Assembly (NCBI GenBank): GCA_048884785.1 | Contig: JBHLQM010000061.1 | Span: forward strand, 2,313 to 21,699 | Reading direction: 5' to 3' | Length of the DNA: 19,387 nt | Source: Candidatus Thorarchaeota archaeon | GTDB taxonomy: Archaea > Asgardarchaeota > Thorarchaeia > Thorarchaeales > Thorarchaeaceae | Shown here: one piece after another, positions 1,033 through 13,926 of the stretch | How the letters are laid out: each line of letters opens with the position of its first letter | Numbering within the stretch: position 1 is the first letter of the stretch | Program-made: the position numbers and the translations under genes | Notes under the pieces: generated by a model | The model's database searches: none | Seen by the model: the letters and a program-made list of their open reading frames with translations, nothing else | Told to the model about the DNA's origin: nothing

Positions 1033-1809
1033 ATGAATCTAGCTGTGGAGAATCTCCTCTCAGTCAGTATGTCTGCAGTAGTATCCTTCTTCTTCACATG
1101 GCTTCTGATTTACCTTCTAGCAAAGGTACACAAGGGACGAGAATTTCATCTCATCAAGAGAAAACCTCTCATCATTCCAGCATTGGTATTCATTCTTGTT
1201 GTTGTTTTTGTTCCTCGCCAACATATTGGTCCTCCACCCGGTCTAGAATCAAATGCCATACATCTGGAGTTGCAGCGAAATGCCTATGCAGATTTTGAGG
1301 CATATGACTGGACACCTTATATCCCGAGAGCTAGAGTTGATTATTCCTATCACTTGCAGCATGCTGAAATCATCGAATGTAGCCTTCTGGTATATGAGAA
1401 TGGCAATCTCGTGACCAATGTAACGACTTCCATATACTATTCAGGCAATCCCAACAGACTGTCTTCAGCACACTCTACATTTGACCTGAATCCCGGGAAC
1501 TATACACTCAGTTTCTCGCAGAGGGTTCTGAATTCTGATGGAGCACCAACTCCATTTTTCAGAATTGTCTCAGCCTCGTTTTATCAGCTCCAAGACTACG
1601 AATGGATAGATGTGTCACTACAATGGGAACAGTATCTTCTAGTGCTCTTCGTATCGGGGTTTGGATTGCTTCTTTTTGGCATCTACGCAACAGACCACTC
1701 TCAGGACACTCCAGAGGAGAAAGAGAGATACGATCGCAAGAGACGAGGTGAACACAACTATCCTTACAGCAGGGCCTACAGACGTGCCATGCGACGACAG
1801 AGAAAGTGA
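1033..1809 (+). CDS. Hypothetical membrane protein (2 N-terminal TM helices, beta-rich extracellular domain, C-terminal TM helix, basic tail)
   Basis: 258-aa ORF with AGGT upstream, hydrophobic segments near aa 10-31, 45-60 and 200-218, N-x-T/S sequons in the loop, and an Arg-rich C-terminus. Confidence 0.8.
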   Translation: MNLAVENLLSVSMSAVVSFFFTWLLIYLLAKVHKGREFHLIKRKPLIIPALVFILVVVFVPRQHIGPPPGLESNAIHLELQRNAYADFEAYDWTPYIPRARVDYSYHLQHAEIIECSLLVYENGNLVTNVTTSIYYSGNPNRLSSAHSTFDLNPGNYTLSFSQRVLNSDGAPTPFFRIVSASFYQLQDYEWIDVSLQWEQYLLVLFVSGFGLLLFGIYATDHSQDTPEEKERYDRKRRGEHNYPYSRAYRRAMRRQRK

Positions 1810-1866: not shown

Positions 1867-1882
1867 AACGATAGTTTTTAAG
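1865..1882 (+). promoter_or_regulatory. Candidate archaeal BRE/TATA promoter for the putative ncRNA
   Basis: TTTTTAAG at 1875-1882 with a purine-leaning GCAACGATAG upstream. The expected start ~25 nt downstream (1905-1910) coincides with the start of the structured region. Confidence 0.5.
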
Positions 1883-1907
1883 GAGCTACTTCCTAATAGT
1901 ATATAAT

Positions 1908-2190
1908 AGTCCAACCCGAAAACGGGTTTGATGGTCGCACGCCCACCTCTCTTCTATGATACCGGGCAGGTTCCGTAGACCGAAAGTTATAACTAGAGTC
2001 GGGACCTATCTCAGTATTGAGGACCTAAGGGCGAAGAAACCGATAACGTGAGTCGACCTGTTCTTTGGCGTGCGGATCAGGTCTTGCATCTGTCTCAAAA
2101 TAGATAGAATGGAACGTGACGCAGAAAATATAGGTGGTGGCGCGGCAAGCGTCACGTTGCTTGCGGGTTTCATCGCCCACCCTATATTCG
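1908..2190 (+). ncRNA. Candidate structured non-coding RNA of unknown family (~280 nt)
   Basis: Helices read by eye: 1924-1943/2067-2084, 1964-1972/2055-2063, 2009-2013/2018-2022, 2089-2095/2102-2108, 2127-2142/2174-2188 and 2145-2150/2159-2164. Pseudoknots: 2113-2120/2151-2158 and 1913-1917/2165-2169. G-U pairs favour the + strand. About 51% GC by hand count over 1911-2190. TATA-like box upstream and T-rich tract 2191-2202 downstream. Confidence 0.68.
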
Positions 2191-2217
2191 TTGTTTTGAT
2201 TTGCTACTTCAGAGTAG
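2191..2217 (+). terminator. T-rich tract and small hairpin, probable 3' end of the ncRNA
   Basis: TTGTTTTGATTT directly follows the last stem, then a CTACT/AGTAG hairpin at 2204-2217. Confidence 0.4.
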
Positions 2218-2262: not shown

Positions 2263-2988
2263 TTATAATTCCCAGGCAGATTCTTTAATATCTTCGAATT
2301 GAGTGCGAGTGAGAATAATTTCATAATCAAATCCATTGGGATGAAGGAATAGCCAGTAGTGTGAAATAAAATTCGGGATGCCGGTGCTCTTCTCTATTTC
2401 ACCATAACTCGAAGAGATATACATCCCTACATCTGATTCTTGTTGATACCAACCAGCCATAAAGGTGTAAATCGATTCGTCATATGATTTACCCTGATAC
2501 CTGTAGTATCTAGGGTACTCTCCTTCTTCATCCATAATTGTGAGTTCGTTCTCAAAATGGTCATCGAAGAATTCCCAATCTCCAATTGGGAATATCAGTT
2601 TAGACAGAGTTCTTTCCAATATGCTTCTCAAGCTATATATGATATGCATACTGCTAATGCTACTCACCTTGACTTTGCCGGAATCGCCTATATTCTCAAT
2701 ATACCATTCTGTGCACATTGAGGAATTTAGATTTGGTAAATCAGAGATTCTAACAAGTATTCTTGAATTATTAAGCGGAAACCAGTATTGAAACACATCC
2801 TCTGTGCCAAAGTCTGCAAGTATCATAAAGCGATACACCAGAACCGTACCGAGAATTTGTGCCCATTCCATTGTGTTACTTTCATAGAATCCGTTTTCAA
2901 GAGTACTGGTAGGCAGAACGAAGAATCCGAAACTGCCTATAACTAGAAACACTACTAGCAGGCTCGTAAATCTTCTACTTTGTGATAT
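2263..2988 (-). CDS. Hypothetical secreted or membrane-anchored acidic protein; ORF-track start is GTG 2952, probable start is ATA 2988
   Basis: 229-aa ORF whose frame extends upstream to give ISQSRRFTSLLVVFLVIGSFGFFVLP (basic n-region plus hydrophobic helix). SD GGAGGGTGA at 3003-2995 and TATA-like TTATATAC at 3055-3048. Confidence 0.75.
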   Translation of the reverse strand: MSQSRRFTSLLVVFLVIGSFGFFVLPTSTLENGFYESNTMEWAQILGTVLVYRFMILADFGTEDVFQYWFPLNNSRILVRISDLPNLNSSMCTEWYIENIGDSGKVKVSSISSMHIIYSLRSILERTLSKLIFPIGDWEFFDDHFENELTIMDEEGEYPRYYRYQGKSYDESIYTFMAGWYQQESDVGMYISSSYGEIEKSTGIPNFISHYWLFLHPNGFDYEIILTRTQFEDIKESAWEL

Positions 2989-7149: not shown

Positions 7150-7228
7150 CATAGACTTCGAAGCCTCGAACGCGATTCAAACGATAATGTTTTCACTGTA
7201 TCGTATTTTGAAATTGACAGTGATATCA

Positions 7229-8296
7229 ATGGACACTGAACGAAGATTGGAACTCATTGCCGCACCTCCAACAGAAGAAATAGTCACTCCAGAAGAACTT
7301 AGGAATCTCATTGAAACAGGTGTACCATTGATAGCTTATGATGGCTTTGAACCGTCTGGGATGGCACATATCGCAACTGGGCTCATGCGGGCCATTAAAC
7401 TCAAAGATATGATTGATGCAGGTGTTCATTTCAAGATTCTCATAGCAGATTGGCATGCTTGGATTAATGACAAGATGGGTGGTGATCTTGAAAAGATCCA
7501 AGCTGTGGGGAGATACTTACCAAAGGCATGGGAAGCGTGCGGAGTGCCCAAGGATAAGATAGAATATGTATGGGCAAGTGATATGGTCAAAGACGCTGAA
7601 TACTGGGAAAAGGTCATCCGGATCGCAAAGAATACTACTGTGGCACGAACAAACCGTTGCTTGCAGATTATGGGACGCAAAGAAACCCAATCTATGGAAA
7701 CGGCCAAGTTGTTCTACCCTATGATGCAGGTCGCCGACATATTCCATCTTGAGGTCAATATCACCCAGTTGGGTATGGATCAACGAAAGGCAAACATGCT
7801 TGCAAGAGAGGTGGGAGAGAAGCTTGGCTATTGGAAACCAACTGCAGTTCATCATCATATCATGCCTGGTCTTACAGGTCCATCGAGAATGGATGTTGCC
7901 GATGCTGACGATGAATTTGCAGGAAAGATGTCAAAGAGCAAAGCGGATACAGCTATCTTCATTCACGATAGCCCTGAAGATGTCATTCGGAAGATGAAGA
8001 AAGCGTACTGTCCCCCTGGAGAAGTAAAGGATAATCCTGTGCTAGAGATTGCCAAGTATATCATCTTTCGGAAGATGGATGTACTTGAGGTGGAACGGAA
8101 GCCAAAGTTTGGCGGGGATGTCCAGTACGTCAGTTATGAAGAACTTGAATCCGCCTATAGGAATCCCGAAGGACCAAAGGGGATACATCCGTTCGATTTG
8201 AAAATGGGAGTGGCGAATGCACTTAATCATATACTTGAACCTGTGCGCCGCTATTTCGAGAAACACAAGGAATTGCTTGCTGTCTTCACAACATAG
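7229..8296 (+). CDS. tyrS: Tyrosine--tRNA ligase, archaeal/eukaryotic type
   Basis: AYDGFEPSG..HIA (HIGH-like), IADWHAWINDKMGGD, YPMMQVADIF, LGMDQRK, KMSKS and IHPFDLK. ATG 7229 with a GTGAT RBS is preferred over 7187. Confidence 0.96.
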   Translation: MDTERRLELIAAPPTEEIVTPEELRNLIETGVPLIAYDGFEPSGMAHIATGLMRAIKLKDMIDAGVHFKILIADWHAWINDKMGGDLEKIQAVGRYLPKAWEACGVPKDKIEYVWASDMVKDAEYWEKVIRIAKNTTVARTNRCLQIMGRKETQSMETAKLFYPMMQVADIFHLEVNITQLGMDQRKANMLAREVGEKLGYWKPTAVHHHIMPGLTGPSRMDVADADDEFAGKMSKSKADTAIFIHDSPEDVIRKMKKAYCPPGEVKDNPVLEIAKYIIFRKMDVLEVERKPKFGGDVQYVSYEELESAYRNPEGPKGIHPFDLKMGVANALNHILEPVRRYFEKHKELLAVFTT

Positions 8297-9480: not shown

Positions 9481-10080
9481 ATGAACCTCAGAACACAAAG
9501 ATCGGCAACAATCTTCATTTCATTCGTGATTGTTGCTCTCATCGTTCTGCATTCAATGCCAACAACTCACCCAGGTGACCAATTTTCGGTTTCTGGCACC
9601 CCCATACTCTCTCAAGACGACACTATTCGTCCGGAAATCTATGAATGGGGTCTTGATGGAACTGTGAACAATGAGACATCCTTTGTAGTCTGGGCAAATG
9701 TATCAGATGTGGGTTCTGGAATAAAGAATGTCACAGCAAATCTTAGACAGGATACCCTGGATGTTTCTGAATACATCATGTCCTTCAATTCGACTTTCTA
9801 CAGGGTTGTTTTTCCTCCTGTAGAATCAAACCATACCTACACAATTAGAGTGAGAGCCTTCGATAATGCAAACAACTCTGCACTGAGTTTTCCGCGAAGT
9901 TTTGACCTTCGGATTATACCAGGTACAATAACCGACCCCTATGTGACATTGCCAATCGTTGTATCATCAAGTCTCGTGCTGCTTGTGCTGGTTGCTGTGG
10001 TTGCTAGGGAATATGACAAGCGTCATCCTAGAGAAGTTGCAGGGAATGAGAACCAAGCCGCCGAAGAAATCGGAAACTAG
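9481..10080 (+). CDS. Cell-surface protein: N-terminal signal/TM helix, Ig/FN3-like beta-sandwich, C-terminal TM anchor
   Basis: V.ANVSD..SGI.NVT ... YTIRVRAFDNANNSA pattern, many N-x-S/T sequons, and hydrophobic segments at both ends. Confidence 0.8.
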   Translation: MNLRTQRSATIFISFVIVALIVLHSMPTTHPGDQFSVSGTPILSQDDTIRPEIYEWGLDGTVNNETSFVVWANVSDVGSGIKNVTANLRQDTLDVSEYIMSFNSTFYRVVFPPVESNHTYTIRVRAFDNANNSALSFPRSFDLRIIPGTITDPYVTLPIVVSSSLVLLVLVAVVAREYDKRHPREVAGNENQAAEEIGN

Positions 10081-10242
10081 TTCACTGACATCTCAGACAA
10101 TCATGCAAAGGCCTTATAATGGGAAAATCCTACATGATGTGAACCGAGGTACAGAAGAGTGGTTGGCAGAAATCAAAGGTTCAAACAATGCCAAACACTT
10201 ATAACATCGAAATCATCCTGAAAAATGCGGATGTGAGTCATC

Positions 10243-13035
10243 ATGTTCAAGTATGCTCTCAAACGGGTTGTTAGAAGCTACCGGCTTTTTGTCGCGCTCA
10301 CTCTGGGGGTACTGGTTGCAACGACTTTCTTTGCCAGTACAAATGTTGCAGCTGATATTCTTGCACGTGATGCACTTGATAGTAGTCTTGAGGGTGTCCT
10401 CTATGATTATGTGGCAAATTCAAGAATCTCTGGCTGGACTCCAGCGATGTTGGCTGAGATTGAGAGCGAACTTTCACAAATTACTGAGGTCAACAACTAC
10501 ACTAAAATGACTGCACTCACATACGATGCCAATGAAACTTTGGAGAATGAGTTTCAGATATTTGCCATAGAATGGGAATCATTCTATGCAGGCGGCGTCA
10601 GTCTCGTAGCGGGCTACCCAACTCTGGGTCCAAATGAAACCTACATTGTGACTGGTTCCGATAACGAATCGCTCTATACTGTTGGCGAAACAATCACGGT
10701 TCCTATAACTGTCAATCTTGACTCAGCACCTTTCTCGGCCGTGATGGACTGGAATCTAACAATTGCAGGAGTCGTGTCTCTTCCAATTGACAGTAGAGAG
10801 GGACTTCAGCAGAACCAATTTGCCGGTATTCTCCGAGGTGCTTTTGGTTTCACTTTTGAGCAACCCTACAATGTCATGCTGGCAGACTGGGATTTGACCG
10901 GATTGCCTATATTGGAAGCAGTAACTTCCTACGAGAACTTCCAATCGGCCCGTATTTTGAACAGCTATCATATCAAGGTAGATAGATACGCTCTGATAGA
11001 TCCGTATGACATCCAAGCATCGCAGCAAAGGATTCAGAGCATCCAGGCTAAAATAGAGGCAAGACTTGAGAGATTTGATGCCTTAGTATCATCGAATCTT
11101 CTCTTCCCACTAATCTCCTTCATGATCGTTTCACTGATGATGAATTTCACATTCATCTCATTGTCTCTGCCAATATTCTTCATGGCTTATTTCACCGGAA
11201 CGATGGTGAGTGATGTAAGCTATAATCTCAGACGAAGAGAGATAGGCTTGCTTCTTACCAAAGGCTACAAGCGCGGTGAAATCAGAAATATGCTTCTTGT
11301 TGAGGGAGCATTGGTAGGGGCGATTGCTGGTGGAGCTAGTGTCTTTTTGGGATCCTTCATCTCATGGATAGTTCTTCAAATACAGGGTCTAGATTTCTTA
11401 ACTGTAATCAATAACAACATGAGTGCCATTACAATTTCTATTATTCTTGGGCTGTTCCTAGCTCTCATATCGGTTTGGCGACCAGCAAACAGAGCATCTA
11501 AACTGGAGATTCTAGATGCGCTTAAACAGTACGTCTTTGTTGAGGAAACCTCTGAGTATAAGCGTCTCTTGCCAACCCTTTCGTTCATACTCGGAAGCTA
11601 CAAACTTATCCTTTGGATTCTTGGAATCAATGCAACTACTCTGCTCAATATTCTGAATATAGGCGGAAATATTACCTTGGCAATAATAGCTATCGCTCTT
11701 GTTGGACTGGATGTGATTCTGAACTATATTGGTCCCCTGTTATTCCTCTATGGTACAACCAAACTCTTCATGAGGGGGTCCCAAAAATTCCAGGAGGTAA
11801 TTGTAAACGCAGGACAAAGATTCTTTGGAGCTTTTGGAAAGCTAGCAACTCGTAATGTAAAGCGAAATCCTGCGAGAAATGCCGCAATGGTCTTTCTCAT
11901 CTCACTCATCGTATCCTATGGTGTCTTTGCCGTAGGAAGCCTCTACTCAGAGAATGATGTTGTTGAAAGAAATGCCCTCTATGATGTCGGCGCAGATGTC
12001 AGACTAGAGCTTTCACAAGGAGCAAACATCTCAGAGGTGCTTGGCATAGTGGAAGGCTTCTCTTCGGTTGATTCGGCAACAGTAGAATATCGTTTGAATC
12101 TTCAAACAGGTTCAACAAGTATCGCCGCACGCGGAATCAACCCTGAAGAGTGGATGCTGACAGCATTCTGGGAGCCTAATTGGTTCATTGGAAATGTAGA
12201 AACAATGATGGACGAGCTAGATTCAGGAGGGATAATACTCTCATTAACTACAGCGAATGACCTTGGACTTGCTGTTGGCGACACTCTATTTGTGCGAAGC
12301 TCACTATTGAGCGAGCCACAGCAGGTTGAGATTGTCGGCCTCATTGGATATCAGTCTGTTCTGGAGGGTATAATTGTTGGCATGGGAGGTCAATCTGACA
12401 TGCAGATATCTGCAGCTGGGGATTATCCTTCTTTTGTATCAATAGCATTCCTGAATGAGTCAGGCTTCTTGAACAGTGCAACGCCTAACGTCTTGATCAG
12501 CACAACTTCAGGTACAAACGGAACGGCAATGCAGGAAGAAGCACACAATGAGATCTCTTCACTCAAGAGGAGTTATTCCTTTACATCTGAAATAGCAGAC
12601 TATTGGGCCAGACCCATCCAGAGTGGAATCACAAAGATTCGCTGGGTGGCGATTGCATTTTCTCTGATTCTTGCCCTCGTTGGTACATCATTAGTAATCA
12701 TTCTCTCCCTTAGAGAGAAGGAAAGCGAGATAGCACTGATAACTGTAAGAGGTTTCACCAAATGGCAATTGTTTAAGACGCTAATGGCTGAGATGCTCGT
12801 TCTTGTAGCATTCTCTCTCATTCTAGGAACATTTGTTGGACTTGTGCAAAATTTTGGAAATGTCAGTCAGCTCAACGATAGTCTTACGGGGCTAATAAGA
12901 TATAACATAGTTCTTGGTGGGATGTCTGGTTTTACAATGCTGGGAATTGTAGGTGTCGTGCTATTAGCGGCAGCCCTCCCCGTCTGGTGGGCATCGAGGC
13001 GACCTGAATCAAAGGTCGATGTCTTGCGTGCATAG
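10243..13035 (+). CDS. ABC transporter permease, FtsX/MacB family (duplicated, two extracellular domains)
   Basis: Two FtsX signatures, RRREIGLLLTKGYKRGEI and KESEIALITVRGFTKWQL, plus LATRNVKRNPAR and VGADVR. Adjacent to an ABC ATPase. Confidence 0.93.
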   Translation: MFKYALKRVVRSYRLFVALTLGVLVATTFFASTNVAADILARDALDSSLEGVLYDYVANSRISGWTPAMLAEIESELSQITEVNNYTKMTALTYDANETLENEFQIFAIEWESFYAGGVSLVAGYPTLGPNETYIVTGSDNESLYTVGETITVPITVNLDSAPFSAVMDWNLTIAGVVSLPIDSREGLQQNQFAGILRGAFGFTFEQPYNVMLADWDLTGLPILEAVTSYENFQSARILNSYHIKVDRYALIDPYDIQASQQRIQSIQAKIEARLERFDALVSSNLLFPLISFMIVSLMMNFTFISLSLPIFFMAYFTGTMVSDVSYNLRRREIGLLLTKGYKRGEIRNMLLVEGALVGAIAGGASVFLGSFISWIVLQIQGLDFLTVINNNMSAITISIILGLFLALISVWRPANRASKLEILDALKQYVFVEETSEYKRLLPTLSFILGSYKLILWILGINATTLLNILNIGGNITLAIIAIALVGLDVILNYIGPLLFLYGTTKLFMRGSQKFQEVIVNAGQRFFGAFGKLATRNVKRNPARNAAMVFLISLIVSYGVFAVGSLYSENDVVERNALYDVGADVRLELSQGANISEVLGIVEGFSSVDSATVEYRLNLQTGSTSIAARGINPEEWMLTAFWEPNWFIGNVETMMDELDSGGIILSLTTANDLGLAVGDTLFVRSSLLSEPQQVEIVGLIGYQSVLEGIIVGMGGQSDMQISAAGDYPSFVSIAFLNESGFLNSATPNVLISTTSGTNGTAMQEEAHNEISSLKRSYSFTSEIADYWARPIQSGITKIRWVAIAFSLILALVGTSLVIILSLREKESEIALITVRGFTKWQLFKTLMAEMLVLVAFSLILGTFVGLVQNFGNVSQLNDSLTGLIRYNIVLGGMSGFTMLGIVGVVLLAAALPVWWASRRPESKVDVLRA

Positions 13036-13044
13036 GTGATAAAG

Positions 13045-13926
13045 ATGGCGTACATTGAAACTACTGATTTGGTTAAAGTGTTTAGACTTGGAAATGTAGA
13101 AGTTCAAGCACTGAGAGGTCTCTCTATGAGTGTTGAAAAAGGTGAGATGGTTGCGATTGTTGGTCCATCCGGCAGTGGGAAGACCACTCTTCTCAATATT
13201 CTTGGAGGTATTACAAAAGCTACTGCCGGAAAAACAATTGTTGCTGGTAGAGATGTTACAAACGCGACTCCCGGAGAGCTTGGATTTCTCCGACGTGATG
13301 TTGTTGGTCATATCTTTCAAGAGCTGAATCTCATTCCAACATTGACTGCCTACGAGAATGTTGAGTTGCCTATGCTTGCCGCTAATGTCAAAGGTACTGA
13401 GAGAAAGAAGCGCGCTGAGGGTCTCCTAGAAACTGTTGGTCTTTCTGATAGAATGAAACACAAGCCTGATGAGCTAAGTGGCGGTGAGCGACAAAGAGTT
13501 GCAATTGCATCTGCCATAGCAAACAATCCAGAGATTCTTCTCTGCGATGAACCAACGGGAGATCTCGATACTGCAACAGGTGCTATCATCGTGGACTATC
13601 TACACAAAGTGAACAAGGAGTTCGGAAAAACTGTCTTGATGGTGACCCACGATCCATCAATTGCAAGGCAAAGCGATCGAATATACAGGATTCAAGATGG
13701 TCGAATCAGATCAGTGCAATCACCAACAGCTGATGATCAGACATCAGCCGTGAGCCGAGTTGATATTATTAGAGAACGACTCGCCGAGATTGATGCAGAG
13801 ATTGCTAGACTTGATGAACGCGCAAAGTCAGGCCAAATTGAGATGGGCGTATTCGCGGGACGAAGAACTGATTTGAGTGACAGAAAGAAGATATTCGAAG
13901 AAGAGCTACATAGATTAGGTATGTGA
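13045..13926 (+). CDS. ABC transporter ATP-binding protein, LolD/MacB type, with a C-terminal helical extension
   Basis: Walker A GPSGSGKTT, Q-loop IFQ, signature LSGGERQR, Walker B LLCDEPTG and H-loop VTHD. AGGTGAT RBS before ATG 13045. Confidence 0.95.
   Translation: MAYIETTDLVKVFRLGNVEVQALRGLSMSVEKGEMVAIVGPSGSGKTTLLNILGGITKATAGKTIVAGRDVTNATPGELGFLRRDVVGHIFQELNLIPTLTAYENVELPMLAANVKGTERKKRAEGLLETVGLSDRMKHKPDELSGGERQRVAIASAIANNPEILLCDEPTGDLDTATGAIIVDYLHKVNKEFGKTVLMVTHDPSIARQSDRIYRIQDGRIRSVQSPTADDQTSAVSRVDIIRERLAEIDAEIARLDERAKSGQIEMGVFAGRRTDLSDRKKIFEEELHRLGM

Follow-up and report, generated by a model that had tools for sequence, protein, structure and literature searches.

Positions 2113-2188 of the 19,387-nt stretch of Candidatus Thorarchaeota DNA analysed here (the window) are very probably the 3′ part of the four-way junction of a structured non-coding RNA that is specific to one family of Thorarchaeota. 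The RNA would constitute a previously undescribed family without recognisable kin. The first-pass annotation had interpreted this segment as a loop pseudoknot. Covariation among homologues largely refuted the pseudoknot and confirmed the underlying pairing: the comparison showed that the predicted helix 2113-2122/2149-2158 is a plain 10-bp nested arm (Hc) of the junction.

Distribution, locus and transcript

The RNA is located in a 453-nt gap between two convergent ORFs, at 1033-1809 (+) and 2263-2952 (-). When this gap was used as a BLASTN query, a single match was recovered from each of 20 genomes, out of 24 searched in the same family, and no match was found in 13 other families. The best conserved part in these matches was 2063-2160. 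Two alignments of the homologues were used. The first, A2, is a structure-blind MAFFT alignment of 21 homologues, representing genera and species, and is without model bias. A covariance model built from A2 detected the RNA as a single-copy element, with exactly one match in each of 68 out of the 86 genomes of the Thorarchaeota family; the matches spanned 16 of 16 genera and 21 of the 23 high-quality genomes. The second alignment, A3, was made by the covariance model and comprises 94 rows, 56 of them distinct.

Outside the family the covariance model had no match in 124 genomes from 26 other families of the phylum. An improved model, applied at E<=1 to 36 genomes that represent 18 other families, likewise gave 0 matches. 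A search of five selected genomes at E<=1 detected no homologue. An exact-pattern scan of 185,579 species genomes recovered records titled Candidatus Thorarchaeota or Promethearchaeota, several of them identical to loci of the RNA's own family (f1), along with chance matches in high-GC bacteria. One metagenome-assembled genome titled Candidatus Hermodarchaeota (L149, JBHLLF010000001.1) carried a copy that matched a copy from the RNA's own family (L032, family f1) in both score and length. Its title is probably a labelling difference and not an occurrence of the RNA in another class. Within the family, no copy was detected in a few good genomes, among them one that is 97% complete (G014) and one assembled as one contig (G045). 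The RNA may thus be dispensable in these genomes, or too diverged there for detection.

We infer a stand-alone transcript of about 285 nt, occupying roughly 1905-2190 of the + strand, with ends and strand predicted from sequence features. A TATA-like box (Table 1) would place the putative transcript start about 23-27 nt to its 3′ side, near 1903-1908. Many G-U pairs in the homologue alignments were compatible with the + strand only. The G+C content of the RNA is 51%, versus 43% for the window. The U-rich tail that follows the ACC trinucleotide is a probable 3′ end of the RNA or its terminator region. A simple scan for terminators and promoters detected no terminator-like site at the 3′ end of the RNA. 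Within the variable 5′ domain, the structural surroundings of the conserved 16-nt motif varied from genus to genus.

Covarying helices and conserved loops of the 3′ domain

RNAalifold folded A2 into four helices, labelled Px, Ha, Hb and Hc, with Px at 2029-2036 paired with 2171-2178. In the pair counts on A2, 92.6% of cells were paired, compared with 75% for shuffled partners and about 40% for registers slid by 1-3 columns, and double changes were present in 27 of 36 pairs. On the 56 distinct sequences of A3 the corresponding values were 95.9% and 31 of 40 pairs, counts that lean towards the model's helices since A3 was fitted to the model. Another helix, Py, was absent from the search model and surfaced in a mutual-information scan of A3. 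It was 99.5% paired, with double changes in three of its four core pairs. Compensation was clear in two of its column pairs: one was represented in A3 by G-C (31 sequences), A-U (19) and G-U (6), and the other by U-G (26), C-G (17) and U-A (13).

Px was 98% paired and had double changes in 5 of 9 pairs. Its variable column, which lies on the 3′ strand shared with the enclosing stem of the first-pass annotation, read G-C in 36, A-U in 16 and G-U in 4 sequences when set against its Px partner. In a divergent copy (G016) a normally invariant Px pair was changed on both sides, from C-G to U-A, and Px was kept. Hc was 96% paired on A2 and 99.2% paired on the 56-sequence A3, with double changes in 8 of 9 pairs on each alignment.

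All of the covarying helices (Px, Py, Ha, Hb and Hc) are nested. Since the covariation of Py and Px replaces the hairpin and the enclosing stem, the 3′ domain is predicted to be a long stem, made up of Px, an extension and Py, that closes a four-way junction with the arms Ha, Hb and Hc (Table 1). The junction linkers are 0 to 3 nt long: C2054 is unpaired between Py and Ha, 3 nt separate Ha from Hb, and the single G2112 lies between Hb and Hc. On the 3′ side of Hc, the strands of Py, the Px extension and Px follow one another, succeeded by the invariant ACC and the U-rich tail. Hc would be stacked on Py, given that their 3′ strands run on without interruption. In the constrained fold the closing stem is about 18 bp long with a bulge, and a 1x1 mismatch separates Px (2029-2034/2173-2178) from the extension (2036-2041/2166-2171); beyond its first two pairs the extension rests on the constrained fold of this sequence. 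Across the 56 distinct sequences, 38 positions of the 3′ domain were invariant.

Table 1. Features of the RNA and its putative promoter, in window coordinates.
Feature	Position	Strand	Basis
TATA-like box, putative archaeal promoter	1874-1881	+	Sequence; A/T-rich boxes at the matching site of homologous loci
5′ domain, variable in sequence and length	1905-2028	+	Alignments
Conserved 16-nt motif of the 5′ domain, GACCGAAAGUUAUAAC (this genome's form)	1978-1993	+	Recurs slightly changed in most homologues
Px 5′ strand (2029-2034) and extension 5′ strand (2036-2041)	2029-2041	+	Pairs with 2166-2178
A/U-rich 5-nt bulge between Px extension and Py	2042-2046	+	Constrained fold; 5-7 unpaired A/U-rich bases in homologues
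Py 5′ strand	2047-2053	+	Pairs with 2159-2165; mutual-information scan
Arm Ha, with invariant 9-nt loop (2065-2073) containing UGGCGUGC	2055-2083	+	Helices covary; loop invariant in 56 sequences
Arm Hb, with conserved loop CAAAAU (2096-2101)	2087-2111	+	Double changes in 8 of 9 pairs
Hc 5′ strand	2113-2122	+	Pairs with 2149-2158
Hc terminal loop, 26 nt: variable-length A/U-rich linker, G-rich block (2133-2145), CAA	2123-2148	+	Alignments
Hc 3′ strand (hairpin loop of the first-pass annotation plus 2 nt)	2149-2158	+	Covariation
Py 3′ strand, directly against Hc with no linker	2159-2165	+	Covariation
3′ strands of Px extension (2166-2171) and Px (2173-2178)	2166-2178	+	Covariation; constrained fold
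Invariant ACC (2179-2181), then U-rich tail	2179-2200	+	Invariance; U-rich tails in all homologues

The terminal loop of Hc combines a linker whose length varies between homologues (for instance in L018) with a G-rich block in which positions 2136-2144 were strictly invariant. The G016 copy (L157:1501-1706, - strand) carries an inserted hairpin of about 28 nt that separates the first six bases of the G-rich block from the remaining ones. On this evidence the block seems to consist of two modules, and the second one repeats UGGCG, the core of the Ha loop. Both the Ha loop (2065-2073) and the Hc loop (at 2138-2145) have UGGCG followed by YG. From this resemblance, one recognition site could be present twice, once in each loop. 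When this genome was searched for antisense targets of these two G-rich loops, the number of hits was the same as for a reversed-pattern control.

A real pseudoknot through the invariant blocks is possible, for example between AGGU of the Hc loop and the ACCU tail. AGGU, the first four bases of the block, could pair with ACCU outside Px in a crossing arrangement. The core columns of this pairing were invariant in the homologues, including 21 metagenome copies, and its one variable flanking pair was mismatched in 19 of 55 sequences without compensation. A metagenome scan for variants of the invariant block recovered a single one, L205 (2642-2833), in which the first G of the block is replaced by A; this one variant had no compensating change in its 3′ tail. 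Pairing of the Ha and Hc loops with C-rich parts of the 5′ domain was also considered as a real pseudoknot and was not significant across the family, as the duplex energies compared with dinucleotide shuffles gave a mean z of only about -0.7. Strong matches between the loops and the 5′ domain were lineage-specific and fell at non-homologous sites, in this genus at 1936-1943 with 2067-2074. The segment 1936-1947 contains in this genus 8 nt complementary to 2067-2074 of the Ha loop, a match that is not family-wide, and 1941-1947 is a second copy of the 3′-end heptamer that is not conserved through the family.

Gene context and alternative readings

An operon at 9481-13926 encodes an FtsX-type permease of 930 aa, a MacB/LolD-like ATPase and a 199-aa protein anchored in the membrane by its C-terminus. 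In 33 of the 56 loci the RNA is followed immediately by this operon in the same orientation, the next gene being that of the 199-aa protein or the FtsX gene, and these genes were never found next to it on the opposite strand. The RNA could accordingly be read as a cis-acting leader of this surface-protein and MacB/FtsX-type ABC operon, switching between Px and an alternative stem in which the G-rich block pairs with the 3′ strand immediately ahead of the U-tract. Neither partner of the alternative stem varies, and the two can pair in every sequence. However, the other loci have unrelated or convergent next genes (a TPR, ferredoxin, M3 peptidase, MFS, LRR, response regulator or TyrRS gene on the downstream side, with some convergent). 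In this genome the operon is 7 kb from the RNA, behind eight other genes, yet the RNA keeps every invariant position. In the divergent G016 copy Px is preserved by compensation, whereas the alternative stem is disrupted in its lower part. In addition, archaeal transcription termination requires no hairpin. A leader function is thus unlikely as the general role of the RNA, and a cis role may hold in those genomes where the operon follows it.

A riboswitch or other cis-leader would be expected to precede genes of a single pathway throughout, on the same strand; the loci other than these 33 depart from that arrangement, and the variation of the neighbouring genes argues against a riboswitch. An archaeal-type tyrosine-tRNA ligase gene (423 bits) is located at 7187-8296 of the window, and in one relative (L021) a class I W/Y synthetase gene is directly downstream of the RNA.

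The 3′ domain also has features in common with tRNA. Its closing stem leads into an unpaired ACC, it has three arms, and the 3′ strand of the final arm continues straight into the closing stem. Px would then be an acceptor-like stem, beginning with GGGC and followed by an unpaired A and CC, that closes a cloverleaf-like four-way junction. We consider such mimicry very unlikely. Px, the invariant ACC, the U-rich trailer and the junction topology agree with it, as do the GGU repeats of the conserved block, which are complementary to ACC. However, ARAGORN identified 0 tRNA and 0 tmRNA genes in the window, the RNA is without T-loop or D-loop motifs, and its arms (9-10 bp, capped by loops of 6-26 nt) are far larger than those of tRNA. 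The base after ACC is U or C instead of A. The closing stem is bulged and of about 18 bp rather than 7 bp, and it is preceded by a conserved 5′ domain of about 125 nt.

If the RNA did mimic a tRNA, RNase P could cleave it at 2028/2029, the CCA-adding enzyme could finish its 3′ end, or a GGU-ACC contact could hold it, fates to which we give the same slight chance. Equally improbable is that the invariant GGU-containing loop of Hc captures the ACC end of the RNA itself or, in genuine tRNAs, the ACC(A) end. Towards enzymes that act on tRNA ends, such as RNase P, the CCA-adding enzyme or a synthetase, an acceptor mimic would serve as a substrate, decoy or sensor.

The loop pseudoknot of the first-pass annotation was built on complementarities that all exist in this sequence. 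The 8-nt stretch 2151-2158 is exactly complementary to AACGTGAC (2113-2120), as can be read directly in the sequence, and the complementarity reaches 10 bp (2113-2122 with 2149-2158). GCAAGC (2145-2150) and GCTTGC (2159-2164) flank the 8-nt stretch, and the A-rich linker GCAGAAAA is present at 2121-2128. In the proposed pseudoknot core, the hairpin 2145-2150/2159-2164 lies inside a stem 2128-2142/2174-2187, and its 8-nt loop pairs with 2113-2120, taken to be single-stranded 5′ of that enclosing stem. The 10-bp match by itself is only mildly unusual: when the 453-nt intergenic region was shuffled 200 times with its dinucleotides preserved, 6 of the shuffles contained a perfect inverted repeat of at least 10 bp. 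The main support for the 2113-2122/2149-2158 pairing is strong and comes from its conservation and the compensatory changes seen in homologues.

The complementarity was not lost in the homologues, where Hc was 96-99% paired, and covariation supports the simple 2113-2122/2149-2158 hairpin with the outer stems unformed. The proposed single-stranded state of 2113-2120 was an interpretation that found no support, as 2113-2122 pairs as Hc. The GCAAGC/GCUUGC hairpin was 68% paired on A2. On A3 its value of 71.8% equalled the shuffle mean of 71.9% and was reached by 315 of 500 shuffles. A commoner form of the hairpin, GGCAA/UUGCC, had 0 double changes and 15 C-A mismatches, which fall at exactly the column that is compensated in Py; variation in the 3′ arm of the hairpin is compensated at 2047-2053, the 5′ strand of Py. 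The enclosing stem showed no compensatory change, and its AU flank was 48% paired. Its core was invariant across the homologues, so that covariation is uninformative there; it clashes with Px, as the 3′ strand of the stem covaries with 2029-2036. The proposed pseudoknot also leaves no linker base on either side where the hairpin stem meets the paired loop, and steric strain would be expected if all 8 nt of a loop were paired within one continuous helix. With the hairpin not conserved and no crossing among the covarying helices, the pseudoknot core is improbable in the extreme. The expectation of a tertiary-structured functional core stood in part: the pairing is conserved within a highly conserved structured core, and the pseudoknot topology was not upheld.

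Folding energies were computed on 2027-2190. The unconstrained optimum for this sequence, -60.9 kcal/mol, contains the hairpin. The fold constrained to the five covarying helices reached -59.7 kcal/mol, within 1.2 of the optimum, and the fold constrained to the outer stem and the hairpin reached -49.6 kcal/mol. By these predicted energies the consensus fold is near-optimal in this species. Since the optimum single-sequence fold holds the hairpin, an alternative conformer is possible in this organism, and the energies suggest that the hairpin may occur here, and only here, as a minor conformer. The GCAAGC/GCUUGC hairpin and the long AU-extended outer stem appear to be accidents of this species' sequence, or at most minor conformers.

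Proposed role and relation to known RNAs

A search of the whole window against Rfam (15; 4227 families) at the gathering score gave 0 matches, and at E<=10 the region 1750-2320 gave only a spurious 13-bit lncRNA match (E=3). Archaeal RNase P RNA (RF00373) had no match in the window even at E<=10, and the genome's copy was found on another contig with 162 bits. Archaeal SRP RNA (RF01857) had no match in the window either and was matched at full length, with 91 bits, on another contig. Since both RNAs are encoded elsewhere in the genome, the RNA described here is neither of them. Full-text literature searches for structured non-coding RNAs of Thorarchaeota or Asgard archaea found no relevant paper among those covered.

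The likeliest role is that of a trans-acting ribonucleoprotein or recognition scaffold, and within this range we favour the scaffold of a ribonucleoprotein particular to the lineage. Hc would serve as a sequence-free spacer that holds out the 26-nt loop, and the conserved G-rich block of this loop would be a functional surface recognised by a protein or by another segment of RNA.

To our knowledge, archaea have very few large structured RNAs besides rRNA, RNase P RNA and SRP RNA. Asgard archaea are the closest known relatives of eukaryotes. Its length of about 285 nt, its single copy, the five covariation-supported helices and 38 invariant positions of the 3′ domain and the lack of an Rfam relative make the RNA described here a strong candidate for a new class of RNA with a biochemical function of its own. 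The corrected four-way-junction fold replaces a misleading single-sequence fold, the loop pseudoknot, and points to the two G-rich loops, the ACC tail and the junction as the sites of interest.

Compared with the H-type and loop pseudoknots of ribozymes, riboswitches and telomerase RNA, the RNA has a stretch resembling a hairpin loop, the whole of which can pair with a distal strand across an A-rich segment, and here too the pairing lies within a conserved multi-helix core. Unlike in those pseudoknots, the hairpin is not conserved, its strand covaries elsewhere, and the pairing is a nested helix. RNase P RNA and SRP RNA are similar to it in being about 300 nt long and single-copy, with their own promoter (putative in the present case), and in having many invariant unpaired bases in a multi-helix fold. 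OLE, GOLLD, HEARO, ROOL and raiA are large orphan structured RNAs of bacteria that are included in Rfam; they are lineage-restricted, have intricate folds with covariation support, and were without an assigned biochemical function when first described. The RNA of Thorarchaeota differs from them in being archaeal (Asgard), in being smaller than most and in having no Rfam match, and it shares with them a long, intricate, lineage-restricted and covariation-supported structure.
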